Of a stretch of 64,000 bases of DNA, positions 1 through 59,296 are shown in pieces. Under the pieces are notes generated by a model. It was not told the origin of the DNA, made no database searches, and saw nothing but the letters and a program-made list of their open reading frames with translations. The DNA comes from Clostridia bacterium. Lineage in GTDB: Bacteria; Bacillota; Clostridia; UMGS1883. A program made the translations under genes and the position numbers. The stretch is from contig JAUNBL010000001.1 of the NCBI GenBank assembly GCA_030527235.1, forward strand, positions 10,294-74,293, in the 5' to 3' direction. The first letter of the stretch is position 1; each line of letters begins with the position of its first letter.

Positions 1-707
1 TCTGTCCCCGGACGCAAGCCAAATTCTTGCTCACCGCCATAAATAATATTAGATAGAATTTCTCTGTTTTTTACACATAAGCAGCCTATACCTTTCGGGG
101 CGTGAATTTTATGTCCCGATACTGATATCATATCCACGCCAAGCTCATCTATAAATAGCTTAAAAGTACCAACTGCTTGTACACAATCTGTGTGAAATAA
201 TATCTTTTTATCCTTGCACAGCCTTGATAATGCTACAACATCATTTACCGTTCCGAGTTCATTATTAACGTACATAATTGACACCAGCCCAGTTGTTGGG
301 CGAATGGCTTTTTCGAACATCTCTATGTTCACAATACCATCAGGAACATCAATATAATCAACGTCAAATCCGAGGCTTTCCATCTTTTTCATGGCATTTA
401 ATACAGAGTGATGTTCGTATTTTGAAGTTATAATGTGATTTTTCCCGCATGACTTTAAAAAATCGGCAACTCCAATTATTGCAAGCGTGTTCGCCTCGGA
501 GCCGGAAGCGGTAAAGATTATATTATCCGGGATGGTTTGAAAAAAAGTCGAAATCAATTTTCTTGCATTGTCGATAGCTTGCTTTGATTTTCCCCCGAGG
601 GGATGCTTACTTCCGGCATTACCGTAACTCGAATAGAGGTATTCATCAATAATCTGTTTATATTTTTCAGACACTTGTGTCGTAGAGGCATTATCAAGAT
701 AAATCAT
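1..707 (-). CDS. Cysteine desulfurase (class V aminotransferase, NifS/IscS-like), 5' part only; continues past the left window edge
   Basis: Own translation of the minus strand from ATG 707-705: MIYLDNASTTQVSEKYKQIIDEY...FTASGSEANTLAI...SGHKIHAPKGIG...GGEQEFGLRPGT. It has the PLP-lysine motif SGHK and a GGxQExGxRxGT motif. The start overlaps the upstream stop (TAATG). It is absent from the ORF track because the window edge truncates it. Confidence 0.8.
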   Translation of the reverse strand, partial: MIYLDNASTTQVSEKYKQIIDEYLYSSYGNAGSKHPLGGKSKQAIDNARKLISTFFQTIPDNIIFTASGSEANTLAIIGVADFLKSCGKNHIITSKYEHHSVLNAMKKMESLGFDVDYIDVPDGIVNIEMFEKAIRPTTGLVSIMYVNNELGTVNDVVALSRLCKDKKILFHTDCVQAVGTFKLFIDELGVDMISVSGHKIHAPKGIGCLCVKNREILSNIIYGGEQEFGLRPGT

Positions 708-1465
708 TAGATATTTCCCTCTTTCATTTTCCGACTGCTCGGAGTAAAAACCGGCATTAATTCAAGTTTAAATTTGTTTTTATTGTGCAACACATCAATT
801 TTGTTTTTAATCTCAACATTCTCACATATTCCATCACGAATATATGTATCTAACGTTTCATATGTAAAACCAAGATTATCCTCATCGGTTTTTTGACACA
901 ATCCATCTGAAGGCGTTTTATATACGAGATTCTTAGGTAATCCTAATTCCAATCCTATTGCTTTAACCTCTTGAACGGTTAAGCCTCCTAATAACGAAAC
1001 ATCACCGGCACTATCCCCGTACCGTGTGGAATAACCTACATAATCCTCGGATAAATTACAGGTATTAATTACTCTGCCATTCATTGATTGCGACACTGCA
1101 TATAACACAGACATTCGTATCCTTGGTGGTAAATTAATGGTCGTCTGGCGTGAAATGTCAATACCGCAGTGTCTTAACTGACTATCTATTGCTGCTACAG
1201 CCACAGAAATCGGAACTGTAATATTTTTAATACCAAGGAATTCAACAAGCTGATAGCTATCGTTTATATCATCTTGCTTTAAATTCGGCATTAACACTCC
1301 AACAACCCTTTCTTTACCTAACGCCTCAACACATAATGCGGCACAAACCGAACTGTCTTTTCCACCAGAAATTCCTATGATTGCATTGCAATCTTTTCCG
1401 TTTGAGTCGAACCAATCACGTGTCCAATCAATCAGTTCGTCTTTTACTGTTTTTGCATCAAACAT
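707..1465 (-). CDS. nadE: NH3-dependent NAD+ synthetase-like PP-loop ATPase
   Basis: 252-aa ORF. It has the PP-loop GISGGKDSSV, then RIRMSVLY, GYSTRYGDSAGD and KTPSDGL..TDEDNLGFTYETLDTYI. These run colinear with NadE as I recall it. The gene is translationally coupled to the downstream desulfurase. Confidence 0.75.
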   Translation of the reverse strand: MFDAKTVKDELIDWTRDWFDSNGKDCNAIIGISGGKDSSVCAALCVEALGKERVVGVLMPNLKQDDINDSYQLVEFLGIKNITVPISVAVAAIDSQLRHCGIDISRQTTINLPPRIRMSVLYAVSQSMNGRVINTCNLSEDYVGYSTRYGDSAGDVSLLGGLTVQEVKAIGLELGLPKNLVYKTPSDGLCQKTDEDNLGFTYETLDTYIRDGICENVEIKNKIDVLHNKNKFKLELMPVFTPSSRKMKEGNI

Positions 1466-1475
1466 CTATTATCTC

Positions 1476-2750
1476 CTATTCATAGTTTAATTGATCCTTG
1501 TCTGTTCTTATAGAAATAAATATTGGAAACTGCAAACTTTCTGCGCGAGTACGCTTATCAGCTGATATTTCCTTATATTTTACTTCACACAGACAACCAA
1601 CAATATCTTCTTTGTGTTTCCAAAACCACTTTCTTTGATCATCGGTAAACCCCGAACCAACACTTACTTCGTTACCTTTGTAATCAAGAACAACTGCTCC
1701 AAGTGTGCCACATAATCTACCGCTACCTTCTTCACAACGTATGATTGGTAAATCCATAGTATAAAACCGTTTTATTTTTAATATTCCGTTGTGTCGATGA
1801 CATTTATATGGTGTATCTAAGTTGAGCATTAACCCTTCTTTATCTTCCGCAACCATTTTATCAAGAAACTTCGATATCATATTTTGGTCTTCGCCGGAAT
1901 ATAGTATCGGCAAAACACAAATATGTTCTTCATTTGCCAGATAATCTCTCAATGAATTTAAGTATAAACTTCTTCTGTTTTTATAACCTTTTGTACTTTC
2001 ACCGGTTTCAAACTCGCTTGTCGGCAATGCATCAAATATTGTGTAACATATTCGGCTCTTATCTTCATCTTCGGAATTAATTATACCGGTTGCAACTCTA
2101 AAAGCTTCATTATCACTAAGGCGTCCTTTGTCTTTTAAAGTTAGTTCACCATCAAATACCATTTTGTTATTATTCCATTCTAAGTGATTTGTTATATGGT
2201 CAAGCCCATCAAATGGTATTCCGCTTCTTCCGATAAGCTTGCCGTTATAATAAGTAGCTCTAACACCATTTAATTTTTCTGTTAGCGCAAACCAAGTTTC
2301 AGAATGTAATGGATACTTTTCTATTGTGTAAGCCTGTTGTACATTCCACTCCGGTATTAGATTTGGAATAATTTTATTAACTGTTCTTGCCGTAATCCCC
2401 AATTTGAGAGTTTTAGACAGAAGTTTTGTGTAGAAGGTGCGCAAATAATCTTCGTGACACTCCAAAAAGCATATAACCTGATATAAAGTTACATCATCAA
2501 TTGCTTTACGTTTGGAAAGATATTCGCACACCTCATATATATTAGTAAACGTCAATGTAATTAACGGTAAATTTCTAATTTTACGATTTAAAGTTTGTTC
2601 TGATACCTTGTATGTCAACATTGGATTTAGCGCATAATACAAATGCTTTTTAAAATGCTCATTATCTTTGTTTTTAAGGATAATTTCTTGCTTTTTAAGC
2701 ATACTTGGTTCATTTTGTAATGTAACTACTTCCTGTATAATATCAATCAC
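1476..2750 (-). CDS. ATP-dependent DNA (or RNA) ligase-like nucleotidyltransferase
   Basis: 424-aa ORF with the ligase motifs in order: I TEKLNGVRA, III FDGELT, IV EGLMLN, V LKIKRF. An N-terminal helical domain of about 150 aa precedes them. The substrate cannot be told from sequence. Confidence 0.65.
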   Translation of the reverse strand: MIDIIQEVVTLQNEPSMLKKQEIILKNKDNEHFKKHLYYALNPMLTYKVSEQTLNRKIRNLPLITLTFTNIYEVCEYLSKRKAIDDVTLYQVICFLECHEDYLRTFYTKLLSKTLKLGITARTVNKIIPNLIPEWNVQQAYTIEKYPLHSETWFALTEKLNGVRATYYNGKLIGRSGIPFDGLDHITNHLEWNNNKMVFDGELTLKDKGRLSDNEAFRVATGIINSEDEDKSRICYTIFDALPTSEFETGESTKGYKNRRSLYLNSLRDYLANEEHICVLPILYSGEDQNMISKFLDKMVAEDKEGLMLNLDTPYKCHRHNGILKIKRFYTMDLPIIRCEEGSGRLCGTLGAVVLDYKGNEVSVGSGFTDDQRKWFWKHKEDIVGCLCEVKYKEISADKRTRAESLQFPIFISIRTDKDQLNYE

Positions 2751-2754
2751 TTAT

Positions 2755-3252
2755 TCACCCACCATCATATTCGTATAGTGTAACGTCGCAATCTTTTAGA
2801 GAGGTTTCAATCATTTTTGAAACCACATTCCAGTCGCCGCCGCCTCTTACACAACCAAGTCCATATGGAATTGCTACCGTATACCCCTTAAACTGGATAT
2901 TTACGTTTTCCAAACATCTTTTTAATGCATCATAGTTAGTATAACATTTTCCGTCATAGCCGAATTTATCTTGAGAGAACATGTTTACAATCACTCTATT
3001 AGAATTATTTGTATCTCCGACAACATTATCATCAATGTATACTATTTGTATCATGCCAAGAAGGGGAGAGGTGGGAAAATGTTTTGGATTATATTCGTCA
3101 TTATCGCACCATGACTTATAATAATCATATACAATCGGATACCTTTCCCTAACTTGTTTTGCCACTCCGGAACCCATAACTCCCTGACAATTTACCTGAT
3201 GCAAAATTACATCCGCATTACTCTCAAATATATTTCCTTTTATATGTTTCAT
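2755..3252 (-). CDS. Macro-domain protein (ADP-ribose binding or hydrolysing)
   Basis: The ORF track starts at TTG 3264. I prefer ATG 3252, which has GGAGG 5 nt upstream. MKHIKGNIFESNADVILHQVNCQGVMGSGVAKQV... and ...IPYGLGCVRGGGDW are macro-domain signatures. Confidence 0.8.
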   Translation of the reverse strand: MKHIKGNIFESNADVILHQVNCQGVMGSGVAKQVRERYPIVYDYYKSWCDNDEYNPKHFPTSPLLGMIQIVYIDDNVVGDTNNSNRVIVNMFSQDKFGYDGKCYTNYDALKRCLENVNIQFKGYTVAIPYGLGCVRGGGDWNVVSKMIETSLKDCDVTLYEYDGG

Positions 3253-3264
3253 CGTTGCCTCCAA

Positions 3265-3360
3265 TCAGAATACTATTCTACGCTCTAAATCATAATACTC
3301 TCGAATAACGTATGGGATTTCATTCTGTAAATCCTTAAACATCGTTTCGAGCTCATTCAT
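3265..3360 (-). CDS. Possible 31-aa leader ORF of the macro/ligase/nadE operon
   Basis: Own translation gives MNELETMFKDLQNEIPYVIREYYDLERRIVF, with the stop directly before the macro-gene RBS. An AGGAGA lies upstream, but spacing to the first ATG is too short. There is no homology evidence. Confidence 0.25.
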   Translation of the reverse strand: MNELETMFKDLQNEIPYVIREYYDLERRIVF

Positions 3361-3380
3361 TCTCCTGCGATAATTCTCTA

Positions 3381-6300
3381 TTGTATTTTACAAGAAACAC
3401 AACTGATTATGAAAGACATTCTGTTGCGTGGGATTTATTTGAGTATGGTCAACAAACATTAACATCACTCTCCTATCCTTCCTACTCTTTCGGAGTATCT
3501 TCTGCAAACTTTATGTCTATTGAAGACTTCGTTTCTTTCGTGAGACAGTTGGAACTTGGACAAAAGATTTATCTAAACAGTGACAAAACAATTCTCGAAC
3601 CAATCTTTATTGGCGTAGAGATTGACTTTGAAAATCTTGAAGCTTTGTCATTGCAGTTTAGTGATAAGTATAGTTCGTCAGATAGTGCGTTTAGGCTTGT
3701 TGATTTGCTTGACCAAAGCATCTCCGTGGGTAAAACCGTAAATTCAAATAAGCTTACCTATTCTTCTTTCGTAGATAGTGGTGCGTCAAGCAAGGTAAAA
3801 GAATTTATGGACTCCGCCTTAGATGTGGCAAAGAACGCAATATTGTCAAGCAGCGGTCAGGGTGTTGTATGGGACAACACTGGTTTGCATTTAAGAAAGT
3901 ATATTGACACCAACAACACAGACTTAGGATATGAAGACGAACAAATCTGGATGATAAACAACAGCATCGTATTCACTGATGATAATTGGCAGACTGCTAA
4001 AATGGCGATTGGTAAAATCATTGATGAAAATATTGCTCGTTATCCAGAGACATCTGATACCACATTCAATGCGAATAAAGTTTATTACTATATAGATGAT
4101 GAGGGTGAGTATCAGGTATGGGAGGGTGACGCAGGAGATTGGGCTGATAGACCTTTGCTTTATGAAAAAGATATAACGGCCTATGGTATCGTAGCCCCTT
4201 ATATTGTTGGTACGCTTATTGCTGGTCAAAACTTAGTAATTGATACACCAGACGGTTCATTTAGAGTTGACTCGTCTGGTGTACATATTGACTCTATGAA
4301 GTTCTTTATTACGCACGATGGTGTCACAGAAGACACAGCACTTCAAGAAGAGTTGGATAAGCTGGCTGAGGAAGCAAATGATATAGCTCTTGATTTAGCA
4401 GGTGCTATAGAAAGTATTGGCGACCTTAACGATAAGGTTGAAAATACAGTAACAACATATTACCAATCTAAAATTCCAGATAACGCTCGTGAGGGTGATT
4501 TATGGTATGTTATTGATGACGAAATTGAAGATAGCCCCGAAGACAATGACGAGTATGAGATAGGAAAGTTATATAGATTTAATGGTGAGGGTTGGGACGA
4601 AATAACTGACGCTGCCGTTATTGAAGCTATAGAAAAGGCAAATAATGCACAGACAACAGCAGACGGTAAGATAACATCGTTCTATCAAAACTACATACCA
4701 CCCACCCCTTCTTTTGGTGATTTATGGTTTAATACCGCAGACTCTCAAACCGTAACAAGACCAATCGAGGTCGGAGATAATCTTGGCGGTATAACTTTAA
4801 CATTTGATACAAGAAAGATAATCACAAACGAAAGTAGCAAAGATATTATTACTGGCGGTGCGGGTTCGTCTGGTAGAATCAACCATATATTTGCATCAAA
4901 TAGGGGTGCTATGGGCAGAGGTGTTTGGTTAACCGCTAACATCAACGGGGTTTCCAAAATCATTTACAATGGAAGTTCGTGGTTGCTTCGAGCATTTACA
5001 GTACCTACAACATTCGGTGTAGTAACCGAGGTCACAAAAGACAGTGCGTTCTACGGGCGTATATATGGCACATTTACTAACAACTACTTAACAAAAAAAT
5101 GGTATAGATATAATGGCACAACTTGGGTTCTTGTTGAGGATGGAGACATCAGTACCGTTAAAAATAATATCAATAATATCACACAAACTCTCGGACAGTA
5201 TATCACCCAAGAAGGCTATCTAACTGCAAACAAACTCAAGGGTGCTATTAGCACAGCATTAACTACAATGCAAAACGGTATCGGTAATGTTGTATTTGAC
5301 GAGGGTGGTTTGTGGTTGTTAAATCAGGCAACAAAAGAAACTGCCACAACTGCGGTATGGATTAATGAAAGAGGTATTTTATTCGGCACAGGAACCAAGG
5401 GTTATATAGAAGCCGAAGATGGTGATGACAACGCTTGGACTTGGACTACGGCCATAGGACATGATGGTATTATTGCGGATGCTATGGCTACAAAAACATT
5501 AAGTGCATTTACTATTAATGGTGGCTCTATCAATATTGGTAATGGGAGGTTTGTCGTAGATAGCAATGGTAATCTCACAGCGCGGTCTGGTACATTCAGC
5601 GGTACACTTGACGCAGCAACAATCAGTGGTGATATAAAATCCAACACAGGTTCTGACTCTTGGATACTTGGTTGCGGTATTAGTATTGGTGATAACCCGA
5701 CAAATAGTTCAGGTAATTTCTATGTCGATACAGATGGCAATGTTACTATGAAAGGTAATATAAATATGTCTGAGGGTAACATCACTTGGAGTAGTAGTAA
5801 TACACCGGTGCAGGTACAGTATAGTGCTGACGGTTCAAGCTGGCATACAACTTTCAAGACGACAGATTACTATGCAAGGTATAGCTACGATGGAGGCACA
5901 ACTTGGACATCCGCCATCCCTGTTAAGGGCAAAGATGGTGAAAAGGGCGAACAAGGTGAGCAAGGTGAGCGCGGCCCGAGAGGATATGCCGGTGCTGACG
6001 GTAGTGATGCAGAAGTTACTTTTGCAAATGTAAATTCTGCACTCGGTTTATTATTTAAGACATATTCGGGTGGAACACCAACAACCATATCTGACTCGTA
6101 CATATATTCCCCACAGGTAAAAGGCGGAGAATTCTATGGTGGAACATTTTATGCAGGAACGGGTACTGGATTTTCGCAAATGTCTTCTGCCGGTTTTAAT
6201 GTGTTTGATGAAAATGGTAATAAGAAAATTGGTCTTGGATGTTATAGTGGTAATTGGTCTTATCCATATCTATCGCTCGGTGTTGGTGCTGGTACCTCTG

Positions 6301-6530
6301 CTAATGGCTCTGGTCTTGTTATGAAATTAGGAAGCGGTGTTTGGATTGGAGACTCAAGTATATTAACGGCTGGCGGTAATTATCCGGGGGGTGAGTCGTC
6401 TGCCACAAATATATCCAGTTCATATTCTAACGCAACTGGTATCTTTATAGATTTTAATAATGATATTGTTTATAGATATTACGAGGGTGTACCTTCAGAA
6501 ATCGGTAGCGGCACAGCAAAATTTGGATAA
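3381..6530 (+). CDS. Phage tail protein (Tal / minor structural protein family), apparently 5'-truncated, with a collagen-like segment
   Basis: 1049 aa. The collagen-like G-X-Y run GKDGEKGEQGEQGERGPRGYAGADG lies at nt 5928-6002. By eye the rest resembles the distal two thirds of Firmicute-phage tail-tip proteins. The frame opens only at 3339, and the start is TTG with no RBS. Confidence 0.7.
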   Translation: MYFTRNTTDYERHSVAWDLFEYGQQTLTSLSYPSYSFGVSSANFMSIEDFVSFVRQLELGQKIYLNSDKTILEPIFIGVEIDFENLEALSLQFSDKYSSSDSAFRLVDLLDQSISVGKTVNSNKLTYSSFVDSGASSKVKEFMDSALDVAKNAILSSSGQGVVWDNTGLHLRKYIDTNNTDLGYEDEQIWMINNSIVFTDDNWQTAKMAIGKIIDENIARYPETSDTTFNANKVYYYIDDEGEYQVWEGDAGDWADRPLLYEKDITAYGIVAPYIVGTLIAGQNLVIDTPDGSFRVDSSGVHIDSMKFFITHDGVTEDTALQEELDKLAEEANDIALDLAGAIESIGDLNDKVENTVTTYYQSKIPDNAREGDLWYVIDDEIEDSPEDNDEYEIGKLYRFNGEGWDEITDAAVIEAIEKANNAQTTADGKITSFYQNYIPPTPSFGDLWFNTADSQTVTRPIEVGDNLGGITLTFDTRKIITNESSKDIITGGAGSSGRINHIFASNRGAMGRGVWLTANINGVSKIIYNGSSWLLRAFTVPTTFGVVTEVTKDSAFYGRIYGTFTNNYLTKKWYRYNGTTWVLVEDGDISTVKNNINNITQTLGQYITQEGYLTANKLKGAISTALTTMQNGIGNVVFDEGGLWLLNQATKETATTAVWINERGILFGTGTKGYIEAEDGDDNAWTWTTAIGHDGIIADAMATKTLSAFTINGGSINIGNGRFVVDSNGNLTARSGTFSGTLDAATISGDIKSNTGSDSWILGCGISIGDNPTNSSGNFYVDTDGNVTMKGNINMSEGNITWSSSNTPVQVQYSADGSSWHTTFKTTDYYARYSYDGGTTWTSAIPVKGKDGEKGEQGEQGERGPRGYAGADGSDAEVTFANVNSALGLLFKTYSGGTPTTISDSYIYSPQVKGGEFYGGTFYAGTGTGFSQMSSAGFNVFDENGNKKIGLGCYSGNWSYPYLSLGVGAGTSANGSGLVMKLGSGVWIGDSSILTAGGNYPGGESSATNISSSYSNATGIFIDFNNDIVYRYYEGVPSEIGSGTAKFG

Positions 6531-6535
6531 ATATA

Positions 6536-6561
6536 AAGAGCCCTTGCTACAGGGCTCTTTA
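6536..6561 (+). terminator. Hairpin after the tail gene (weak terminator or processing site)
   Basis: AAAGAGCCC-ttgctaca-GGGCTCTTT. Only a short T tract follows. Confidence 0.35.
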
Positions 6562-6580
6562 ATAATGGAGGTGATTTGAT

Positions 6581-8314
6581 TTGTTTAAGACAAAAGGTTA
6601 TACGGGTGCAAAGAGAACAAATTGCGTAAGGAGCTCTGCGATGTGTCTCAATAAACGAAAGCAAAGTTCTGGGAGTAGCTCTGGGAGTAGCGTATATTCT
6701 GGAACTTACTTGCAAATGGATTTTTATCCTACCCGAGTTGATAAGTGTGCACTTCTAATGTCGTGGCACGATTATGCCGGGGGCGATATGTATGATATTG
6801 TTAGCATAAGAATGCTTGTTACATCTACTAATCCATCCAATATAAAATTCAATAATTCTTGGTATGTGGGCGATAGCAATCCTCTGTCTGACAGTATGAC
6901 AACAATCGAAAACCATAACATTACAACGCAGGCAGGCGAAGGGGAGCTTTTTAGAGCTTGGATTAACCCCGGTTATTATGTAATCATACTATTTCAGTAT
7001 CGCGATAGAGCTGGCGATAGGTGGGGTAGATATTGGTATACTCTATCTCGTTCATCAAGCAATGTATATTCGTCTGCTCCGTCGTTTAGTTATAATCAAA
7101 ATACAAATCAATTTATCATAGGAACATCTATGACCGGTCGCAGAATTATAGAGTTCTACAATACGGATAGGTCGTATGGGTATCCAACATCTATAAGAGA
7201 TGAGGAGACTCTAAACGAAATGTACTATGCGTCTGTCGTAGATATGGAGTGGGACTCTAACCCCTATAAAGGATATTACCATTTGAACGGTTCGAGCTTA
7301 ACGAGATGGGCACCCGGCAGATATACTGTGGGCGTACAATTCAATACATCAACAAATGAATTAGTAATCAGTTCTGGAATTGATAATGCTATCTATGAGT
7401 TAAATAATGTATTAAATGATTATGGAATATATTTTACGAGAAGCGGAACATCTGGAGATATTTCTGTTATTGTTGACTCAGAACAAAGTCTATATGATAT
7501 AGACCCCGAAGCAGATGATGTATGCGGTGGAACTTGGGAAACCGATGTAGACAGCGATGGTATTATTCACGGTGCTACTATACGGTTGGCAAATGATTAT
7601 TACGAACATATTCCGTATATGCCCTATCGTAGTGTGGCATTAGAGGAACTCGCTCAGGCTATGGGTGCAGGATATGACCAAACAGAATATCCATTTAACA
7701 CGATTCATACAGACTTTAGCTATCACAACAAACCAGACTATCTCACTACTAAGGATAAAGACATTCTTAAACTTGTTTATTCAGATTATGTAGAAGCCGG
7801 TGATGATTATACAGATATCGCTCTCAATCTTAATATTCCAAAAGGGTGTTATATGCCAAGTACATCAACCACAAACAGCCAAAGAATTGTACCAGCGTCT
7901 TTTCTACAGAGAGGATGTACATATAATGTCAGGGTGTTTATAGTTAATTCAAGTGGCAGAGTTAGTGAAACGAGCGACTGGATAAGAGTAACCATACCAG
8001 AGAAGGTAAGACCGAGCGATTTCTATTGGACTTATTCCAAGATATCTGGCAATAGTTTTAATCTCACTGCTTCTGAATGGAATTCATTTACATCGAGAAT
8101 AAATGAATTTCGAGAGTATTGCGGTTTGTCTGCGTATAGTTTCACAACCGCATATACAGGAAACGACTTCACTGCTTCGATATATAGACAGGCAAGGACG
8201 GCCATACAAGCAATAGATGGATATGGAACTTATATCCCCTATGTATCTTCCGGAGATGATATAACGGCGGATATGATGAATGTGCTTGTTAGTGAATTGA
8301 ACGCAATTCCATAA
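6581..8314 (+). CDS. Phage structural protein, function unknown
   Basis: 577-aa ORF with GGAGGTG 7 nt upstream of TTG 6581. It sits in the tail module. I recognised no motif. Confidence 0.5.
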   Translation: MFKTKGYTGAKRTNCVRSSAMCLNKRKQSSGSSSGSSVYSGTYLQMDFYPTRVDKCALLMSWHDYAGGDMYDIVSIRMLVTSTNPSNIKFNNSWYVGDSNPLSDSMTTIENHNITTQAGEGELFRAWINPGYYVIILFQYRDRAGDRWGRYWYTLSRSSSNVYSSAPSFSYNQNTNQFIIGTSMTGRRIIEFYNTDRSYGYPTSIRDEETLNEMYYASVVDMEWDSNPYKGYYHLNGSSLTRWAPGRYTVGVQFNTSTNELVISSGIDNAIYELNNVLNDYGIYFTRSGTSGDISVIVDSEQSLYDIDPEADDVCGGTWETDVDSDGIIHGATIRLANDYYEHIPYMPYRSVALEELAQAMGAGYDQTEYPFNTIHTDFSYHNKPDYLTTKDKDILKLVYSDYVEAGDDYTDIALNLNIPKGCYMPSTSTTNSQRIVPASFLQRGCTYNVRVFIVNSSGRVSETSDWIRVTIPEKVRPSDFYWTYSKISGNSFNLTASEWNSFTSRINEFREYCGLSAYSFTTAYTGNDFTASIYRQARTAIQAIDGYGTYIPYVSSGDDITADMMNVLVSELNAIP

Positions 8315-8351
8315 GGTTATATCTTATAAATAAGAATACAAGGAGAGTAAT

Positions 8352-8525
8352 ATGAAGAACGAAATGATACAAAAACTTGGTGCGGTTATTAATGCACTAA
8401 ATAATGTTTATGTCAAAGGTGAACAGAACCTTGCTAACCTTAGCGGCAGCATTACTATATTAAAAGAAGTTGCTGAGCAACTTAATATTTACGAGGTTGA
8501 AGAAAAATCAACCAACAAAGAGTAG
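8352..8525 (+). CDS. Small phage protein (57 aa)
   Basis: Own translation gives MKNEMIQKLGAVINALNNVYVKGEQNLANLSGSITILKEVAEQLNIYEVEEKSTNKE. AAGGAGAG lies upstream. It is below the ORF-track cutoff and fills an otherwise empty gap. Confidence 0.5.
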   Translation: MKNEMIQKLGAVINALNNVYVKGEQNLANLSGSITILKEVAEQLNIYEVEEKSTNKE

Positions 8526-8544
8526 AAAGTAAAGAGGTGGTTTA

Positions 8545-10047
8545 ATGGCTTTTAACGGATGCTATTTCAGCTTTGACGGAATACCTTGTACAGAGTATGG
8601 TCTTATGCTATATGACATCGGTACAAAGAGTTCTGACACAACAACAGATTTATCTGTTAATACAGAAATAGTTGAAGATAGGATTGCACGAAGATACACG
8701 CCTTTACATTATGGAACAATAACCAATGAACCGCTTGAATTTACAATGACATTCGGTGCAGATATAAACGCAATTGATAAAGGTGAGTATCTGGACAGAT
8801 GGGATTTGGAAACGATAGCTCGATGGCTAACTGCGCACAATAAATATAAATGGCTTGAGATAACACAGCCTGATATGGAGATGTTTAGATATAAATGTTT
8901 TATCACTGACTTAAAGCATATTGATGTTGCAAATCTTCCTTGGGCTTTTAGCTGTAAAGTTATTTGCGACTCCCCGTTTGCATATCAGTATCCAGAAGTA
9001 TTCAGGTATGTTGTGAATGGCACAACAGAAGTTGAGCTATTAAATAAGAGTTCTTATCGTGGGTTTTATAAACCTAAGATGGTACTATTTTTACCAAGAG
9101 GCGGTTCGGTTGATGTTAGCTTGTTAGAAACTGCATTGACACACGGATATGACGATAAACTTCTTAGAGATATAGACCATTACCCATTATTTGTTTTAGA
9201 CCACGGCGGTGGGTATAACTATTTTTCACTTAAAGAAAGTACAACTAATATCAGGAAGACAATATATGCAAGCCTGCAAGAACAATCAATGAGTCTTGTT
9301 TTCAGTGCCGGTATGGCTCTTGTGGAAACTATGGGTTTAGAAGAACACAATATGACCTTATCGGTAAGCGGAGACATAACAAGGATAATGACGCTTACAA
9401 CACCAAACCTGTCTGCTAAATTAAAGAATCAAATAAAAGCTAATATGACAAATCTATGTGAACTCATAATGAATGCCACAGGAGTTCACTGGCTTGATGG
9501 GTACTTGCACGAATATGACGACAGACTACTTTCAGATATGTATGTAACATATCCGAATATGTCTCTTGTTTCAATGTGCGACAAGGTATATATGAAGTTC
9601 TCGTTTGAACCCGAAGGACACAATATGTCACTTGATGGTAGCGCACCAGACTTTGTAACGACATCAATTATAAAGGATGCGGTTAGGTCTGTAATGCAGT
9701 TAGACTCAGGAACTTCATTTGAATACGAGGTTGTAATAGGATGTAATCCTATGGATACATCATTAAATTCATCTGAGGTATCATTAAATGTTATTGCGTA
9801 TATGTATCCAGAGGCAATCGAGACGAGCTTCTCAAACAGAACGGTACGAGATATACACACCAAGAGTGCTCTTGCTGTTACATCACAGAGTAGGCTCAAC
9901 ACTTCTGTCACAGAAGAAATAGAGATGTATTATGGACTTGGACATTTCGATAGGAATTATCTATATTATTGGGATACATATACTATCGAAGATATGTCGG
10001 CAGAAATTACCGTTAGGTCGCAAGGCGGCTCTGTAGATAATAACTAA
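8545..10047 (+). CDS. Phage tail/baseplate-associated protein (Dit-like N-terminus?)
   Basis: 500 aa with an RBS (AGAGGTGG). The N-terminus MAFNGCYFSFDGIPCTEYGLMLYDIG resembles phage tail-family proteins. The assignment is weak. Confidence 0.45.
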   Translation: MAFNGCYFSFDGIPCTEYGLMLYDIGTKSSDTTTDLSVNTEIVEDRIARRYTPLHYGTITNEPLEFTMTFGADINAIDKGEYLDRWDLETIARWLTAHNKYKWLEITQPDMEMFRYKCFITDLKHIDVANLPWAFSCKVICDSPFAYQYPEVFRYVVNGTTEVELLNKSSYRGFYKPKMVLFLPRGGSVDVSLLETALTHGYDDKLLRDIDHYPLFVLDHGGGYNYFSLKESTTNIRKTIYASLQEQSMSLVFSAGMALVETMGLEEHNMTLSVSGDITRIMTLTTPNLSAKLKNQIKANMTNLCELIMNATGVHWLDGYLHEYDDRLLSDMYVTYPNMSLVSMCDKVYMKFSFEPEGHNMSLDGSAPDFVTTSIIKDAVRSVMQLDSGTSFEYEVVIGCNPMDTSLNSSEVSLNVIAYMYPEAIETSFSNRTVRDIHTKSALAVTSQSRLNTSVTEEIEMYYGLGHFDRNYLYYWDTYTIEDMSAEITVRSQGGSVDNN

Positions 10048-10068
10048 AAGAATTGGAGGAACAAATAA

Positions 10069-11586
10069 ATGAGTTATACACCAAACATAAATTTGATGCT
10101 TACTCCCGAAGATGATACCAGCACAACATTCAAGCAGTGGCGTACTGGTATGAACGGCGAGGATAGCGATTCTAACATGATGAAAATTGATGAAGCTGTC
10201 GGTGCTCTTGATGAACACTGCGATAGACTTCAGGCTAAAGTCGATACCGTATCGAGCAAGGTATTCGGCGAGTCCCCTCAGACTTGGGCAGATGTCCAAA
10301 CTATTGTTCGTAGCGGTGCAGCGTCTCAATATTTTGATGTTGGAGACCAGTTCATCGTTGAGAGATTAACAGGCGTAACAGCTTCTGTGGGAGAAAGTGA
10401 GGGCATATCTGCTGTGACCGTTGACTCAAACACATTTGTTGATGGTATGGGCGAGGTACACGCAGGTGATTATCTTTTCACATACGACGGCGTGTCTTGG
10501 AGAAATGAGGTTGGTGAAATAGTAAACATTGAAACGCTTGGTATTACATACACAGGCACGCCAACTGCCGGAGATAACATTACTGTTACAGAAGCCTCTA
10601 CACAATTAGCTTTCGATGTTATTGGCATTGACCATGACACTCCTGCTGACGCAAACCACACTCACAGTATGACATTACAACTCCACAACTTATGGTCAAG
10701 TACTATGACATATGATGCAGCCGAGGCTATGTTCGCAGTAGATGCAGAAACATATCCCGATGGTCTTCCCGCCGGAACTTATAACTTTACTTGGAATTAT
10801 GCGACCGGTAGTATGGTAAATGGTACCTATCAGTTTACTATTGAACAACCGATACCGATTGGCGGTCAGATTGTTATTGAAACAAACTCAAGCTCTACCG
10901 CCATCACCTCTTGTAAAATTAAAACATATGCAACTGCTGGTGCAACAAAAACTATCGAAACTAATATTGCAATTATAACGGGTACAGAAGGTACAAGTCT
11001 TGGCACGATATTAAGTACAACTTCTTCTGCGACAAATCTCAACTGTGCTCAGCGTATTATGTGGGGTTCAAACAACTGGAGTGAGTCCTCTCTTCGTCAG
11101 TGGTTAAATACAGATGCGGCAGCAAACTCTTGGTGGGAACCTAAGACTGTCTTTGATAGACCCGCAAACACTGATAGTGTTGGTTTCTTAAAAGATTTAG
11201 ACCCCGCATTCCTCGATGTTATTGGAGATGTGACAAAGACAACTCAATTGAGTGTTTCTGATGACTATGGTTTAGAGACATCTACTGAACGCTTCTTCTT
11301 ACTTTCAAGACCTGAAGTTTACGCGGGTACTGAAAGAAGTGCAGACGGAACAGATGGCACAGTATACGTATACTATGGCGCTGGCTATTCTGATTTGACC
11401 GCTCCGGGTACCGGTGCAGACTCAAATAGAATTAAATACAGAAATGGCAGTGCAACATATTGGTGGTTGCGTACTCCTCATTCTACCGTCGGTGGCCATG
11501 TTCGTAATGTCCACCCAACGGGCTCCTTGAACATCTACAATGCCAACAACAGTACCGGTGTGGCTCCGGCTTGCGTAATCGTGTAA
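10069..11586 (+). CDS. Tail fibre / receptor-binding protein, the DGR target (VR at the extreme C-terminus)
   Basis: 505 aa with a tail-fibre-like N-terminus, MSYTPNINLMLTPEDD..SN.MKIDEAV. The C-terminus ...YWWLRTPHSTVGGHVRNVHPTGSLNIYNANNSTGVAPACVIV contains the VR. Confidence 0.85.
   Translation: MSYTPNINLMLTPEDDTSTTFKQWRTGMNGEDSDSNMMKIDEAVGALDEHCDRLQAKVDTVSSKVFGESPQTWADVQTIVRSGAASQYFDVGDQFIVERLTGVTASVGESEGISAVTVDSNTFVDGMGEVHAGDYLFTYDGVSWRNEVGEIVNIETLGITYTGTPTAGDNITVTEASTQLAFDVIGIDHDTPADANHTHSMTLQLHNLWSSTMTYDAAEAMFAVDAETYPDGLPAGTYNFTWNYATGSMVNGTYQFTIEQPIPIGGQIVIETNSSSTAITSCKIKTYATAGATKTIETNIAIITGTEGTSLGTILSTTSSATNLNCAQRIMWGSNNWSESSLRQWLNTDAAANSWWEPKTVFDRPANTDSVGFLKDLDPAFLDVIGDVTKTTQLSVSDDYGLETSTERFFLLSRPEVYAGTERSADGTDGTVYVYYGAGYSDLTAPGTGADSNRIKYRNGSATYWWLRTPHSTVGGHVRNVHPTGSLNIYNANNSTGVAPACVIV
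11465..11570 (+). repeat. DGR variable repeat (VR)
   Basis: It aligns without gaps over 106 nt to 12235-12340. There are 14 mismatches, and at every one TR has A. The 3' end is the invariant GC-rich GGTGTGGCTCCGG. Confidence 0.9.
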
Positions 11587-15607: not shown

Positions 15608-16516
15608 ATGACAGCACAAAAAATAATTAATATGGCAGCATCTCAGATTGGAACAAAGGAGTCCCCTGCAAATTCGAACAACGTTAAGTATAATACCGAC
15701 TATTATGGTCGGGCAGTAAGTGGCTCAAGTTACCCTTGGTGTTGTGCATTTATATGGTGGATATTTAATGCTTGCGGCGCTTCCGAGCTTTTTTATGGTG
15801 GAAAAAAAACCGCATATTGTCCTACTGTCGAAAGCTATTACAAGGCAAATGGAATGTGGTTTAATTCCGGCAAGCCGGGGGATTTGGTTTTATTTGACTT
15901 TACCGGCAAGGGAATTTCCGGACATATTGGAATTGTAGAATCCGCTAATTCCGATGGTTCATATACAACAATTGAAGGTAACACCGGTTCCGGAAATGAT
16001 GCCAATGGCGGAACAGTAATGAGAAGGACTCGTTATAAATCTTCTATTCGTGGATTTGCGAGACCTAACTATGCGAGTGATGTTATTCAGTTTACTGAGA
16101 CATCTGTAAACCTCATAGGTACAATAAATGCAAGCGTTTTAAATATAAGAAAACAACCGTCAACGGCATCTGAAATTATCGGCAAACACAGCAATGGAGA
16201 TGTTGTTAATATAACGGCAAAAACAGATAATGGTTGGTACAGAGTTGATTATCCCAATATTGGCACAGGTTATCTGTATGCCGATTATGTATCAGTGGCA
16301 GAGCCGACACCCGAACCTGTTGTGCAACAACCTTATACTCCACCGACCGAAGAAAAAGATAACGTTCCCGACGCTTGGGCGGAAACTGCCGTTCAGAATG
16401 CTATTGATAATAAAATCATTTTCGGTGATGATACCGGGGATTTAAAATTACATAAAAATTGTACAAGACAGGAGATGCTTGTATTCTTATATAGGTTTTA
16501 TAAAAACATAATTTAG
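15608..16516 (+). CDS. Endolysin: CHAP amidase/peptidase + SH3-like + SLH-like wall-binding domain
   Basis: 302 aa. The CHAP Cys is in YPWCCAFIWW and the His in GHIGIV. The middle segment NASVLNIRKQPS...GWYRV is SH3b-like. The C-terminus is an SLH-like module. Confidence 0.85.
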   Translation: MTAQKIINMAASQIGTKESPANSNNVKYNTDYYGRAVSGSSYPWCCAFIWWIFNACGASELFYGGKKTAYCPTVESYYKANGMWFNSGKPGDLVLFDFTGKGISGHIGIVESANSDGSYTTIEGNTGSGNDANGGTVMRRTRYKSSIRGFARPNYASDVIQFTETSVNLIGTINASVLNIRKQPSTASEIIGKHSNGDVVNITAKTDNGWYRVDYPNIGTGYLYADYVSVAEPTPEPVVQQPYTPPTEEKDNVPDAWAETAVQNAIDNKIIFGDDTGDLKLHKNCTRQEMLVFLYRFYKNII

Positions 16517-19609: not shown

Positions 19610-21151
19610 TCAGCCTATTTCAGCCGCACTTTCGGCGCAAAAGTCCTTGATTTTCCACTCGATTTCAAGCCTATTATCGGGATATACACACACCTTTTCG
19701 ATAAGCATATCGGCAAGTGCCTGTGTTAAGGCGGTTTCTTTTTTTACGGCTTTCGCCGTTTGAATAATTTTTGCCCTGTTTTCAGTTTCAAGCTGTGAGC
19801 GTTCCTCCGATTTGCGGAATTTATCGTATTGAATACGGTAATTCTCGGTTTTTGTGTCATATTCCTGTTTTAAGCATTTATACTCATCAAGTGTAATTTC
19901 TTCTGTTAAAAGCTGCTCATACAAGAGTTGTTTTTTCTTTTGGCAAGCCGTTATCTGCTTTTCAATATCCGCAAGCTGCTCTGTTTTTATCTGTGCGGTA
20001 TCAACCTTTGAAACATCATCAATATTCAATATGCTTTCGGCTTGTTTTGAGATTATATCAAAAATTGCTTGGTTTAACGCACCTTCCGTAATTTCCGATT
20101 TATAGCAAGGCTCCGTTTCGTCATTCCTTGTATAGCTGCACCGATATATCGGTATTTTTTTCGGCACATAATCCATTGCGTGCTTGCAGCAGCCGCACTC
20201 AACCTTTCCACGAAGCGGATAGCTCCGCTGTTTTTTATTCGGCTGCTTAAATGTTCGCCGCACCGCATTAGCCTTTTCAAACAATTCCTCCGAAACAATC
20301 ACATCGTGGTGGTGCGGTATCTTTATCCACTCGCTTTCATCACGCTTGACCATTTTTGTGCTGCCCACATCTTGTACCCTCTGCTTCAGCATCACAAACA
20401 TCCCCATATATTGTTCGTTGACTATAATTCGGTTTATGGTGGAAATGCTCCAATATTTGCAGTTTGGAAAACGAGAGCCGTAGTTTCCTTTAATGCCCTT
20501 GTACTGTGCAGGAGTAGGGATATTTTTATCGAACAACAGCTTTGATATATATGCGGCAGACTTGCCATCGGCGGTAAGCTCGAATATCATTTTAACCGTT
20601 TCGGCGGCTTTCTCATCTATAATCTGCTCGCCGTTATCTCCGGCTTTATAGCCGTATGTATAATTCCCCGATTTATATTCGCCACGCCGCATTTTTGTAT
20701 ATTTGGCACTCTTTGTTTTAACCGATAAATCACGGCTGTAATACTCGTTTACGAGATATTTCACCGCAACGGCAATGCCACCCGTATCGCCCTTATGTTC
20801 GTCACTGTCATAGTTATCGCTGACCGATATAAACCGCACACCGAACAGAGGAAATATTTGTTGTGTAAAATACCCAACCTCTATACTGTTCCTCCCGAAA
20901 CGGGAGAAGTCCTTTACCAAAATGCAATTCACCTTATAAGCTTTAACATCATTCAAAAGCTGCTGAACGGCGGGGCGTTCAAGATTAGTCCCAGAATAGC
21001 CGTTGTCAACATATTCGATAATTTCAACATTATCGCCGAGAGCTTCCGCATATTTACGGAGCAAAAGCCTTTGTGATTCAATGCTCATACTCTCAACACG
21101 CTTATCTTCAACAGACAAACGCAGATATATGGCTATAATGTATCTATCCAT
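19610..21151 (-). CDS. Large serine recombinase (3rd of triplet)
   Basis: 513 aa. The N-terminal resolvase domain reads IAIYLRLSVEDK...SIESQR...YVDNGYSGTNLERPA...ILVKDFSRFGR. A recombinase and zinc-ribbon region and a coiled coil follow. Confidence 0.9.
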   Translation of the reverse strand: MDRYIIAIYLRLSVEDKRVESMSIESQRLLLRKYAEALGDNVEIIEYVDNGYSGTNLERPAVQQLLNDVKAYKVNCILVKDFSRFGRNSIEVGYFTQQIFPLFGVRFISVSDNYDSDEHKGDTGGIAVAVKYLVNEYYSRDLSVKTKSAKYTKMRRGEYKSGNYTYGYKAGDNGEQIIDEKAAETVKMIFELTADGKSAAYISKLLFDKNIPTPAQYKGIKGNYGSRFPNCKYWSISTINRIIVNEQYMGMFVMLKQRVQDVGSTKMVKRDESEWIKIPHHHDVIVSEELFEKANAVRRTFKQPNKKQRSYPLRGKVECGCCKHAMDYVPKKIPIYRCSYTRNDETEPCYKSEITEGALNQAIFDIISKQAESILNIDDVSKVDTAQIKTEQLADIEKQITACQKKKQLLYEQLLTEEITLDEYKCLKQEYDTKTENYRIQYDKFRKSEERSQLETENRAKIIQTAKAVKKETALTQALADMLIEKVCVYPDNRLEIEWKIKDFCAESAAEIG

Positions 21152-22787
21152 TTGCTATCGCCTCGCTTTCAAATTCGTTATCAAAACTATATGTTATCTC
21201 AACTCGTTTGCCTTTGTAAATATCTATTCTCGAAACCAGCTTGTCTATAAGCTCTTTGGTTAAAGTGTTGTTTTCAGCAATATCCGAAACGGCGTTCGAC
21301 AGGTCGCAATATCGGTTATAGCTTTTTTCAAGCTTCAAGCGGCGGTTTTCAACCTCGGTTATCTTTTTCATTGTATCGGAGATTTTATCGCCGTAGCTTT
21401 TACGCATTTCTTGATATTCCTCCTGTGTTATAATGCCGTTTACAAGATTTTCATATAAGCTGTTCAAAAAATTCCGATTTTTTGATATGTAAGCTCGTAA
21501 GTCCTTTAATTCCGCCTGTTGAGCTTCTATTTCTTTCTTATCATTCAGCGAATAGAATATCAGATTTTTTCTGTCGGCAAGTACAGACGTTTGCGATTTT
21601 ATTGCGGTTATAACCACATTGAGCAAATCTTTTTCGAGAATACTGCCGTTATCGCATCCGTCACGCTTATATCTTGTATTTGTAAGACAGTTTATATTAT
21701 ATGCAAACCCTGTTTTTACTCTTGAAAATCTTGAACGATGTAACGCTCTGCCGCACTCGCCGCAGAAAATTTTACCTTTCCATATATTTTCGGTGTAGGG
21801 TATTACGGTTAGCTTGCTGTGCTTATTTTTTAACTGCTCCATACGCTCCTGTGCTTTATCAAACATATCCTGTGAAATAATAGCCTCGTGCGTGTTCGGA
21901 ACGACTATCCATTCATCTTTGTCAACAGCGGTCTGCTTTTTAGCCAAGCTGTCACTTCTGCCCTGAACGAGCTTGCCTGTATATATTTCGTGTGTTAAGA
22001 TTTGCCGAACGGTCATAGTCTGCCATAATCCGCTGCCGATACTCTTTTTTGAGGTTATATATCCCTTTTGATAGCCGTATGCACCCGGTGTTAGGATTTG
22101 CTGTTCGTTAAGCTGCAAGCATATCTCATTTGTTGACATACCACCGTTAAAAAGCTCAAATATCAGCTTGACAACGGGTGCGGTTTCGGGATTTACGATT
22201 AGCTTATGACAGTCATTCGGATCTTTCAGATAACCGTATTTCGGTCTTGCACTCACATATTGTCCGTCACGCATTGCCTGTCGTGCCTGTGTTTTGATTT
22301 TCTTTCCGATGTCCAAAGCGTAGGCTTCATTTATAATATTTTTGATATAAAGGAGCATTTTATCACCGTTTGAGGGGGTATCCGTATCAAAGTTATCGTT
22401 TACGGCAATAAACCGCACCTTCTTTTCGGGAAAGTAGGTGTCTATATAAAAGCCTGTGTCAATACTGTTTCTGCCGAGCCTTGACAAGTCCTTTACGATT
22501 ACGCAGTCTATCTTGCCGCTTTCAATATCCTCAATCATATGCTGAAATTCAGGGCGGTGAAAGCTTGTGCCTGTCGCTCCGTTGTCGATATATACTCCTG
22601 CCAAACGCATATTTCCGTTTTGTGCGATATAATCATCGAGTATCATCTTTTGATTTTCGATGGAATTACCCTTGTTGTGGCTGTCCTCAACCGATAATCT
22701 TATATACTGTGCCGTTTTTATGTATATAGGCATATTTTCCGGCTTTGTCTGTGCAGCAGTGATATTTTTTCTGCTTTTTCTTGCCAT
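21144..22787 (-). CDS. Large serine recombinase (2nd of triplet)
   Basis: 547 aa: YIRLSVEDS...SIENQK...YIDNGATGTSFHRPE...VIVKDLSRLGR. It overlaps the next gene by 8 nt. Confidence 0.9.
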   Translation of the reverse strand: MARKSRKNITAAQTKPENMPIYIKTAQYIRLSVEDSHNKGNSIENQKMILDDYIAQNGNMRLAGVYIDNGATGTSFHRPEFQHMIEDIESGKIDCVIVKDLSRLGRNSIDTGFYIDTYFPEKKVRFIAVNDNFDTDTPSNGDKMLLYIKNIINEAYALDIGKKIKTQARQAMRDGQYVSARPKYGYLKDPNDCHKLIVNPETAPVVKLIFELFNGGMSTNEICLQLNEQQILTPGAYGYQKGYITSKKSIGSGLWQTMTVRQILTHEIYTGKLVQGRSDSLAKKQTAVDKDEWIVVPNTHEAIISQDMFDKAQERMEQLKNKHSKLTVIPYTENIWKGKIFCGECGRALHRSRFSRVKTGFAYNINCLTNTRYKRDGCDNGSILEKDLLNVVITAIKSQTSVLADRKNLIFYSLNDKKEIEAQQAELKDLRAYISKNRNFLNSLYENLVNGIITQEEYQEMRKSYGDKISDTMKKITEVENRRLKLEKSYNRYCDLSNAVSDIAENNTLTKELIDKLVSRIDIYKGKRVEITYSFDNEFESEAIANG

Positions 22788-22788
22788 A

Positions 22789-31207: not shown

Positions 31208-31475
31208 AAGCATTTCCTCCTTGTTTCTTTCCGACATTCTGCCGGATAATCTGACCGTGCATATTGTTTTGTCTGCTCACCCACACGGCAAGGAGAGCCT
31301 CCGCCATTCTTCACTTTTGAGGATGGCGCATTGTTCGGTACATTCACATCATATCATCACATCACCCCTGTCCTTCTCGCAGTGCGACGAGCATTGCCTG
31401 CCGGCTCTCTCGCCACATGATGAGTATTCATTCATGCACCTGTTTTACAACATTATCCTAACAGATAAAGTGTAT

Positions 31476-31540
31476 AAAAGATATTCTCCAATGGATAATT
31501 TTTGAGCTTTTTCTGCAATATTATCATTGGATAATGTGCA
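31476..31540 (-). promoter_or_regulatory. Conserved operator/promoter block, copy A (upstream of the 1743-aa gene)
   Basis: About 57 of 66 positions are identical to 46096-46162. It contains the palindrome-like sites 31483-31499 and 31520-31535. Confidence 0.6.
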
Positions 31541-31588
31541 AAATATACAAATAATTAACATTGTATATAGACATTTTCGCCTAAAATG

Positions 31589-31831: not shown

Positions 31832-31855
31832 GCTGCCCCTCCTTAATAACTGATC

Positions 31856-31885
31856 GCGGGATATCCGACAATGCAGATATCCCGC
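31856..31885 (-). other. 10-bp perfect intercistronic hairpin
   Basis: GCGGGATATC-N10-GATATCCCGC, between the 590-aa and 80-aa genes. No T tract follows. Confidence 0.4.
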
Positions 31886-31902
31886 ATCTAAATTAAAAGT
31901 TT

Positions 31903-59278: not shown

Positions 59279-59296
59279 AGTATATCACCTCCGGCG

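Follow-up and report, generated by a model that had tools for sequence, protein, structure and literature searches.

The window analysed here is a stretch of 64,000 nucleotides (nt) from a Clostridia bacterium (contig JAUNBL010000001.1), and at its left end, positions 1-3360, open reading frame (ORF) calls and reading of the sequence place four minus-strand genes, encoding a macro-domain protein, an ATP-dependent DNA ligase, the nicotinamide adenine dinucleotide (NAD+) synthetase NadE and the cysteine desulfurase NifS. This cassette is phage-derived, because all four of its proteins match PHROG families, its gene order recurs in viral contigs, and a pattern scan of 185,579 species genomes with NifS found no fixed chromosomal operon of this composition. 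Its upstream end is a breakpoint, either an inversion or a misassembly. The features concerned are the following (aa, amino acids; related loci are cited by L numbers).

<1..707, minus strand: class-I cysteine desulfurase of the NifS/IscS type, 388 aa, first 235 codons in the window (Pfam Aminotran_5; the full protein, P0001, is NCBI MDO4562212.1)
707..1465, minus strand: NadE, single-domain ammonia-type NAD+ synthetase, 252 aa (Pfam, TIGR00552, PHROG_11189)
1476..2750, minus strand: ATP-dependent DNA ligase, 424 aa, GTG start (Pfam, PHROG_114, PDB alignment)
2755..3252, minus strand: stand-alone macro-domain protein, 165 aa, NCBI MDO4562215.1 (PHROG_335, NCBIfam DarG model, AlphaFold)
3265..3381, minus strand: 3' remnant of a gene of about 183 aa (homology to L009 and L006 proteins)
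3381..3382, no strand: rearrangement breakpoint, from which two 5'-truncated genes diverge
3381-6530, plus strand: tail-fibre-like ORF, 1049 aa, apparently 5'-truncated (PHROG_6211, homologue alignment)

By profile and structure searches, the 252-aa protein, which an earlier note on this DNA had called NadE-like, is a canonical ammonia-type NadE with all family motifs kept. It matches the Pfam model NAD_synthase (PF02540) at 2.2e-50 and 171.5 bits (cut-off 21) over model positions 5-229 of 242, TIGR00552 at 173.7 bits (cut-off 63.65) and PHROG_11189 at 1e-59, and its closest structures in the PDB are 3fiu (3e-33) and 2e18. The motifs SGGKDS, NxxxRxR, NTxNxSE and GYxTxxGD are invariant among 23 aligned family members, as are N111/R115/R117, N134-T135-x-N137-x-x-E140, G144-x-x-T147-x-x-G150-D151, K183/P185/D187 and D194-E195; no cysteine is invariant in this alignment, C190 and C41 being lost in L001, L002 and L008. 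Models for MnmA, LarE and QueC match the P-loop part only (residues ~27-107, E values 4e-5 to 8e-3), compared with 4e-51 for the NadE model. NadE consists of a single domain, and no nitrilase-like gene that might supply a glutaminase lies in the cassette or the related loci. In a set of 5.8 billion proteins the nearest NadE protein is 80% identical, and the best 119 relatives listed all fall between 72 and 80%. The 249-aa protein of 3fiu, which we take to be the Francisella tularensis enzyme, is of the same length class, likewise has no glutaminase domain and carries all PP-loop and substrate-loop motifs. As reported for the organism, the F. tularensis NadE homologue prefers nicotinate mononucleotide (NaMN) and works as a nicotinamide mononucleotide (NMN) synthetase (PMC3376133). 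Proteins about 30% identical to the cassette NadE and annotated as 'NAD synthetase' are encoded by Synechococcus phage S-SSM7 (L111, 3986-4747) and Pelagibacter phage HTVC008M (L112, 3986-4744), where their neighbours are UDP-glucose dehydrogenase, glycosyltransferase, methyltransferase and carbamoyltransferase genes; these marine phage proteins may amidate a sugar acid instead of making NAD+.

The macro protein gave no Pfam match at 0.01, but it matches PHROG_335 at 6.3e-43 and the NCBIfam DarG macro model at 1.2e-21 and 77 bits (cut-off 250; model positions 2-147 of 338). Its start is the ATG at 3252, with GGAGG 5 nt upstream, and the NCBI annotation likewise gives 165 aa; the TTG at 3264 is probably not the start. 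An AlphaFold model (mean predicted local distance difference test score 89) superposes on macro domains with template modelling (TM) scores of 0.72-0.79, the leading Foldseek matches being BT1257 (2afc), DarG (5m3e) and Poa1p (6lfr), and TARG1 also superposes at 0.7-0.8; by structure the protein belongs with DarG, Poa1p and TARG1. Its loops GVMGSGVA and GGGDW are kept throughout the family, whose nearest member in the 5.8-billion-protein set is 67% identical; around the nearest annotated phage homologue (SPbetaL8), all neighbours are annotated as hypothetical. With the DarG antitoxin macrodomain (PDB 5m31, 5m3e, 5m3i, 7omu) the protein shares the fold class, the best curated sequence model and the ADP-ribose-binding loop GVMGxGxA. 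However, Lys80 in the PTK motif of Thermus aquaticus DarG, the catalytic residue, aligns to an invariant glutamine (Gln94; Asp95 in one of three DarG alignments), and Lys96, close by, varies within the family. The C-terminal DarT-binding domain is also missing, the score lies under the family cut-off, and the neighbours are the ligase gene and a gene remnant, not a DarT gene. The best structural matches are Poa1p, the yeast ADP-ribose-1''-phosphate phosphatase (PDB 6lfq-6lfu), and Bacteroides BT1257 (2afc, 2fg1), with TM scores of 0.72-0.78 (0.73-0.74 for 6lfr) at an identity of only 22-24%. The invariant His18 aligns to Poa1p His23, where DarG has Asn, and BT1257 has Gln at the position of the DarG lysine, as does the cassette protein; the equivalent of Ser30, which like His23 was mutated in the Poa1p structures, is Val25. 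Because the lysine is replaced and His18 corresponds to Poa1p His23, we consider the protein to be probably a hydrolase of a soluble ADP-ribose derivative, similar to Poa1p and Adpp, and not a DNA glycohydrolase; the likeness to DarG drawn in the earlier note does not extend to the catalytic lysine.

The 424-aa ligase matches PHROG_114 at 2.1e-71 and the Pfam families DNA_ligase_A_M and DNA_ligase_OB_2, and its residues 10-415 align to PDB 6rau, 6rar and 6ras (E value 7.5e-21). It has three domains, of which the N-terminal one binds DNA and the others are a nucleotidyltransferase domain and an oligonucleotide-binding (OB) domain; motif I, read from the sequence, is KLNG. Macro and ligase genes adjoin in the cassette, L004 and L009; no ligase gene occupies that position in L001, L006 and L012-L016.

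The NifS gene crosses the left window edge, and the full protein is intact. It matches Pfam Aminotran_5 at 1.9e-55, while the NifS, IscS and DndA models each score about 1e-71, all under their equivalog cut-offs; the closest PDB matches are IscS and NFS1 (1e-66 to 1e-68). P0001 has the pyridoxal phosphate-binding lysine in SGHK (197-200) and the catalytic cysteine loop SAGSACSS (324-331), both invariant or nearly so among 16 aligned phage homologues. In the species genomes, NifS was found at 58% identity in only three contigs, where the phage gene order is kept as far as the contig extends. The next matches are at most 42% identical, and four of the six checked have NifU directly downstream, one with Rrf2 upstream and another with MnmA downstream. 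Such housekeeping IscS/NifS-NifU clusters of Clostridia and archaea hold the nearest cellular homologues (38-42% identity, the same catalytic motifs), and unlike them the phage NifS has no NifU, MnmA or Rrf2 neighbour. Judged by the identity gap from 58% to 42%, the phage NifS is a separate phage clade.

The four genes are tightly packed. Gaps of 12, 4 and 10 nt separate successive ORFs, the 12 nt lying between a 31-codon ORF and the macro gene; the NadE stop and the NifS start share one base (TAATG at 709..705), and the macro, NadE and NifS starts each follow a Shine-Dalgarno-like motif. None of the four reading frames is interrupted or shortened relative to its family, the ribosome-binding sites are kept, and the guanine-cytosine (GC) content of the cassette is 35.7%, compared with a maximum of 51% in the host part of the window. 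The packing noted earlier is therefore real, but the use made of it, as a sign of a functional unit, fails: same-strand packing is ordinary in phage DNA and says little about joint function. Each of the four genes is ordinary in itself, the cassette is a copy that has been truncated, and its products most likely act as separate enzymes and not in one pathway.

The truncation is visible at the upstream end. The 31-codon ORF (3360..3265), previously suggested to be a leader, is by homology the 3' stump of a gene of about 183 aa, and a leader peptide was rejected on that ground. Together with 7 homologous codons upstream of its ATG, the remnant matches residues 146-182 of the 183-aa protein encoded upstream of the L009 macro gene (49% identity over 37 aa), and it is 38% identical to a 182-aa protein encoded directly upstream of the L006 macro gene. 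This homology ends at ~3381, and the plus-strand tail gene begins exactly there, with a TTG start and no Shine-Dalgarno motif. In a 1056-aa homologue, the counterpart of tail-protein residues 15-313 lies at 542-805, and the match of the tail protein to PHROG_6211 begins at profile position 432 of 1168; given this 5'-truncated tail gene, the prophage may be defective. The cassette does lie next to prophage genes, as the earlier note had it, but it is joined to the tail genes at a breakpoint and is not simply adjacent. One inversion within one prophage, with one break per gene, would fit the junction exactly; otherwise the assembly would be chimeric at this point. We also considered a Mu G-type invertible tail-fibre segment and rejected it, as no constant 5' gene part is positioned for fusion. 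The sole independent assembly found with the exact NadE is a 1752-bp Logan contig, which does not cross the junction.

Outside this genome, the cassette gene order is found again in viral contigs from IMG/VR (31-97 kb) and in contigs from metagenomes (59-225 kb), with identities of 76-80% for NadE, 60% for the ligase, 56-67% for the macro protein and 54-63% for NifS. A choice between phage, host and separate islet, once considered undecidable, is thereby decided in favour of phage, and the survey of gene neighbourhoods, in which a chromosomally fixed four-gene operon would have been the adverse outcome, returned blocks in phage contigs and no such operon. Scans of species genomes and JGI metagenomes with P0001 yielded nothing on the left flank beyond NifS, and likeness to known phages at the DNA level was limited to one 77-bp match. 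The related loci share an order that begins with genes for nicotinamidase, a PRS/Adps-like protein, a NAMPT/Namat-like protein, sometimes NADAR (in several loci), and a Thg1-like protein. It continues with macro, ligase in some, NadE, one to three extra genes in some variants, and NifS, and ends with a run of unknown genes, PemK and MrpR, and then RlaP, a P-loop kinase, a metallophosphatase and an RNA ligase. The Adps-like and Namat/NAMPT-like genes lie a few genes away from the macro gene, and the PRS/Adps-like protein shares 40% identity with one encoded by SPbetaL1, the phage source of the experimentally used NARP1. GenBank MT835544 (L001, 2083-7333) has a compact run of PRS-like, NAMPT-like, macro, NadE and nicotinamidase genes, and phage Phass-1 (L002, 4480-8918) has nicotinamidase, PRS, NAMPT, one unknown gene and NadE; these two and L008, loci with NadE of lower identity, all keep nicotinamidase and have no NifS, and the first two have the PRS- and NAMPT-like genes. 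NARP1-like genes likewise accompany nicotinamidase and NadE in L012 (2246-11927), and their combination in L001, L002 and L012 suggests a deamidated NAD+ route that is absent from the 2024 NARP preprint.

NifS keeps company of two kinds. It is adjacent to NadE in one clade (the window, L012/13, L014, L015/16 and L102) and parted from it by one to three genes in L004/L009, L006 and L017. In nine further kinds of phage locus, NifS (37-48% identical) has no NadE within 10 kb, and most of these loci keep PemK-MrpR and/or RlaP, kinase or Thg1 nearby. GenBank 'phage' records with NifS at 39% identity or less are mostly fragmentary assemblies and were excluded. tRNA genes occur within 10 kb of NifS, often directly upstream, in 8 of the 15 phage loci scanned, and among them are Lys-UUU, Gln-UUG and Glu-UUC, which normally carry a 2-thiolated wobble base. 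Because NifS recurs without NadE near PemK-MrpR, RlaP or tRNA arrays, and the lower-identity NadE loci have no NifS, the NadE-NifS pair is best read as the joint between two modules, with NifS on the side of tRNA maintenance.

Further observations concern these NifS loci. In L104 (1-6500), L105 (1-9200) and L109 (1-9500), 11-20 tRNA genes form an array that lies upstream of the phage NifS and comes to within ~0.5-0.8 kb of it, and ARAGORN assigns a two-base anticodon to three tRNAs of these arrays. In distant loci, the phage NifS is accompanied by a PemK-toxin and MrpR-like pair and a putative tRNA-repair set (Thg1-like, RlaP, KTI12/AAA_33 kinase, metallophosphatase and RNA ligase), found at 14.1-20.7 kb in L009, at 14.1-20.7 kb in L012 and downstream of NifS in L104, L105 and L109. 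A 270-aa radical-SAM protein is encoded at 4933-5745 in L015/L016, ~5 kb upstream of NadE-NifS, and is a possible phage-encoded iron-sulfur (Fe-S) client of NifS in this one locus variant.

Taking these data together, we propose, with moderate confidence, that the cassette is the trimmed downstream part of a larger gut-phage accessory region, cut at 3381, whose most likely function is to keep NAD+ available; the block would most likely sustain NAD+ while the host cell destroys it. The rearrangement at 3381 would have removed the upstream genes, which in relatives encode nicotinamidase and Adps-like, Namat/NAMPT-like and Thg1-like proteins. The macro protein would hydrolyse a soluble ADP-ribose derivative arising from NAD+-destroying defences of the host, the best candidate reaction being that of ADP-ribose-1''-phosphate to ADP-ribose. 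NadE would use ATP and ammonia to amidate either nicotinate adenine dinucleotide (NaAD) to NAD+ or NaMN to NMN, and would thereby complete the deamidated branch of NAD+ resynthesis. The ligase, being ATP-dependent, would seal nicks in phage DNA without using NAD+, unlike the NAD+-dependent ligase of the host. NifS would pass cysteine sulfur to host acceptors as a member of the next downstream module, with its tRNA arrays and tRNA repair; because it belongs to that module, tRNA thiolation or Fe-S supply is likelier than NAD chemistry, and sulfur delivery for tRNA thiolation or Fe-S assembly is our preferred, unproven role for it. Of all this, the gene identities, the phage origin, the conserved gene order and the breakpoint are shown, while the substrates and the roles in counter-defence and of NifS are inferred. 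The earlier suggestion of an NAD+ and ADP-ribose counter-defence is thus supported in outline, since homologues of NadE and the macro protein stand among NAD genes in every related locus; two of its details, a macro domain DarG-like at the catalytic lysine and maturation of NadA by NifS, are not.

In its NAD part the gut-phage block resembles an enlarged NARP1. NARP1 and NARP1-AP (Adps, Namat, Adpp; Osterman et al., 10.1101/2024.02.11.579819, 10.64898/2026.01.28.702374) also form a phage-borne set that rebuilds NAD+ and also include a Poa1p-like macro protein: Adpp, the NARP1-linked macro phosphatase, tested as gp137 of phage Gary, converts ADP-ribose-1''-phosphate to ADP-ribose and defeats the aRES defence (10.64898/2026.01.28.702374). 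In comparison, Adps and Namat are absent from the window and present in MT835544, L006, L012 and L015 only at wider spacing, and the cassette macro protein has the equivalent of Poa1p His23 and not that of Ser30. NadE and nicotinamidase do not belong to the NARP1 of 10.1101/2024.02.11.579819, a preprint silent on NadE, PncA and nicotinic acid. Gut 'NAD-jumbo' phages also cluster nadE with NAD genes, as pncB-nadD-nadE, with a proposed role in offsetting NAD+ depletion (Li et al. 2024, PMC11662467). The cassette differs in having no pncB or nadD, in lying in a Clostridia prophage, and in the partners of NadE (macro protein, ATP-dependent ligase and NifS); the jumbo phages mostly have NAD+-dependent ligases (PMC11662467). 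In the literature we found, phage nadE appears as a bioinformatic description only, in these jumbo-phage clusters, and NifS in a phage NAD-gene setting is not mentioned.

Several points weigh against a role in keeping NAD+ available. Homologues of Adps, Namat, NAMPT and nicotinamidase were not found within the 64-kb window, and the macro protein and NadE would therefore need host enzymes or genes beyond the left edge. Some phage NadE homologues lie in sugar-modification clusters, as in cyanophage S-SSM7 and pelagiphage HTVC008M, and the NadE family name alone does not guarantee NAD synthesis. The order macro-NadE-NifS is kept clade-wide, usually adjacent or a few genes apart, down to 51% NifS identity (L102), and there is room for a functional link between NadE and NifS. 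No sulfur acceptor or scaffold (NifU/IscU, MnmA or ThiI) stands beside NifS in any phage locus, as judged from PHROG and Pfam scans of 20 neighbour proteins from three locus types and from reading the small neighbours. Finally, expression of the cassette in this genome is uncertain: the native upstream region is removed, and only a weak promoter-like site (9 of 12 positions) is left at 3413..3385.

That last point bears on the proposal that the cassette is inactive here, either as a promoter-less fragment stranded in a defective prophage or because 3381 is an assembly chimera with a different phage. Both genes flanking 3381 have no 5' part; upstream of the cassette there is no minus-strand ORF of at least 90 aa over 6 kb, and from there to the recombinases at 19.6 kb the minus strand has just short ORFs that bear no annotation; the promoter-like site is weak; and the sequence is a contig of a metagenome-assembled genome whose junction the independent Logan contig does not span. 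Against this, the four frames are intact and full length with their ribosome-binding sites, a single inversion accounts for the junction, and chimeric joins normally need a shared repeat, of which none is evident; we see this as a minor but appreciable possibility. Comparable weight, as a tentative idea, goes to a more specific version of the NAD+ function, in which the gut-phage block (nicotinamidase, Adps-like, Namat-like, macro phosphatase, NadE) would be a deamidated reconstitution branch running from nicotinamide through nicotinate and NaAD to NAD+, of which the window keeps the macro-NadE end only. Nicotinamide released by defence NADases would be converted to nicotinate, the Namat-like enzyme would join nicotinate and ADP-ribose-pyrophosphate directly to NaAD, and NadE would amidate NaAD to NAD+; the clade-specific pairing of NadE with NifS would then mark an unrecognised sulfur- or Fe-S-dependent requirement. 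The substrate would differ if the macro protein worked as an orphan antitoxin of the DarG kind and cleared phage DNA of the ADP-ribose added by DarT-type toxins, with the ligase sealing the lesions and NadE refilling NAD+. The DarG macrodomain is the best curated model, DarG structures (5m3e, 5m3i, 7omu) are among the leading fold and sequence matches, macro and ligase genes adjoin here and in L004 and L009, NADAR genes lie in several relatives, and phages are known to bear orphan DarG-like and NADAR antitoxins. We nevertheless consider it unlikely, given the replaced Lys80 and unconserved Lys96, the Poa1p-type His at the DarG Asn, the low score and the missing C-terminal domain; in addition, most relatives have no ligase gene at that position, and in MT835544 the macro gene stands between the NAMPT-like and NadE genes.

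The remaining alternatives tie NifS to NadE. If NifS rebuilt the oxygen-labile [4Fe-4S] cluster of host NadA, more NaMN would be made de novo and passed through host NadD and phage NadE to NAD+. Bacillus subtilis needs a dedicated NifS for NAD synthesis, and the NadE-NifS order is kept in one phage clade; however, no NadA, NadB or NadC gene occurs in the Pfam-annotated related loci, the nearest cellular NifS homologues adjoin NifU (Rrf2 or MnmA in single loci) and not nad operons, and many phages have NifS without NadE, all of which makes this route, part of the earlier note's argument, very improbable. Least probable of all, and by a reading that we hardly credit, the 252-aa protein would be a PP-loop ATPase that adenylates a nucleic acid or nucleotide to which NifS gives persulfide sulfur, or, in a variant, would lead to a LarE-like thiocarboxylation of the nicotinate ring. 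The TAATG overlap, NadE-NifS adjacency in at least six distinct relatives and the intact catalytic cysteine loop of NifS agree with such thiolation, and adenylation of the nicotinate carboxylate, which is NadE chemistry, is formally the first step of LarE. The PP-loop protein is, however, a full-length NadE above its curated cut-off, with partial matches only to MnmA, LarE and QueC and with no cysteine conserved across the wider family; NifS is separated from NadE in some relatives and often occurs without it; and genes for DndCDE, ThiI, MnmA, TusA and rhodanese were not found nearby in the related loci. The insertion of sulfur into a nucleic acid or nucleotide, the second reading originally offered, is accordingly not supported, and the supply of NAD+ by a trimmed gut-phage block remains the interpretation we prefer.

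The rest of the window places the cassette in its genome.

3381-11586: tail-fibre-like genes (PHROG)
15608-16516: endolysin with CHAP and SH3 domains (Pfam)
19610-24396, minus strand: three tandem ORFs of 513, 547 and 535 aa, most likely large serine recombinases (Resolvase, Recombinase and Zn_ribbon_recom in three window proteins in a pooled Pfam scan)
26-56.5 kb: host chromosome with surface, SLH, regulatory and transport genes and an IS110 transposase (Pfam)
26006-38622 and 39035-40198: host surface region with a 1743-aa protein (Cu_amine_oxidN1, Flg_new, Big_3) and two SLH-domain proteins, and after it an IS110-family transposase
56885-64000, minus strand: conjugative-element-like fragment with a 797-aa NlpC/P60 protein, a 781-aa TraG/VirB4-like P-loop ATPase and an N6/N4 DNA methylase

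The serine recombinases, each ~24% identical to a 524-aa hypothetical protein of Bacillus phage SPbetaL8, probably mark the prophage end, and the host region has a GC content of 48-51% at 27-36 kb. Prophage head and packaging genes are not in the 64-kb window and should therefore lie to the left, which would put the cassette inside the prophage. The TraG/VirB4-like ATPase is called 'terminase large subunit' by PHROGs at 1.4e-21, a label that is probably misleading, and a search of viral contigs with this protein gave no match. A reading of the whole window as phage, based on the PHROG labels 'terminase' and 'minor tail', was rejected, as Pfam shows recombinases, host genes, IS110 and the TraG/VirB4-like ATPase.

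Bacterial anti-phage defences commonly end in the depletion of NAD+. Experiments have demonstrated three phage pathways that restore it, NARP1, NARP2 and NARP3, together with a macro-phosphatase add-on, and with respect to these known phage NAD systems the cassette is a modest variant. The block from which it comes is abundant in uncultured gut phages and joins NARP1-like genes with nicotinamidase and NadE, for whose roles the literature we found holds no experimental test. The deamidated route, if true, would be a fourth way to rebuild NAD+ and would explain phage NadE, and the phage NifS clade, set apart from cellular genes and found beside tRNA arrays and repair genes, offers a starting point for asking whether phages control tRNA thiolation or the supply of Fe-S clusters.

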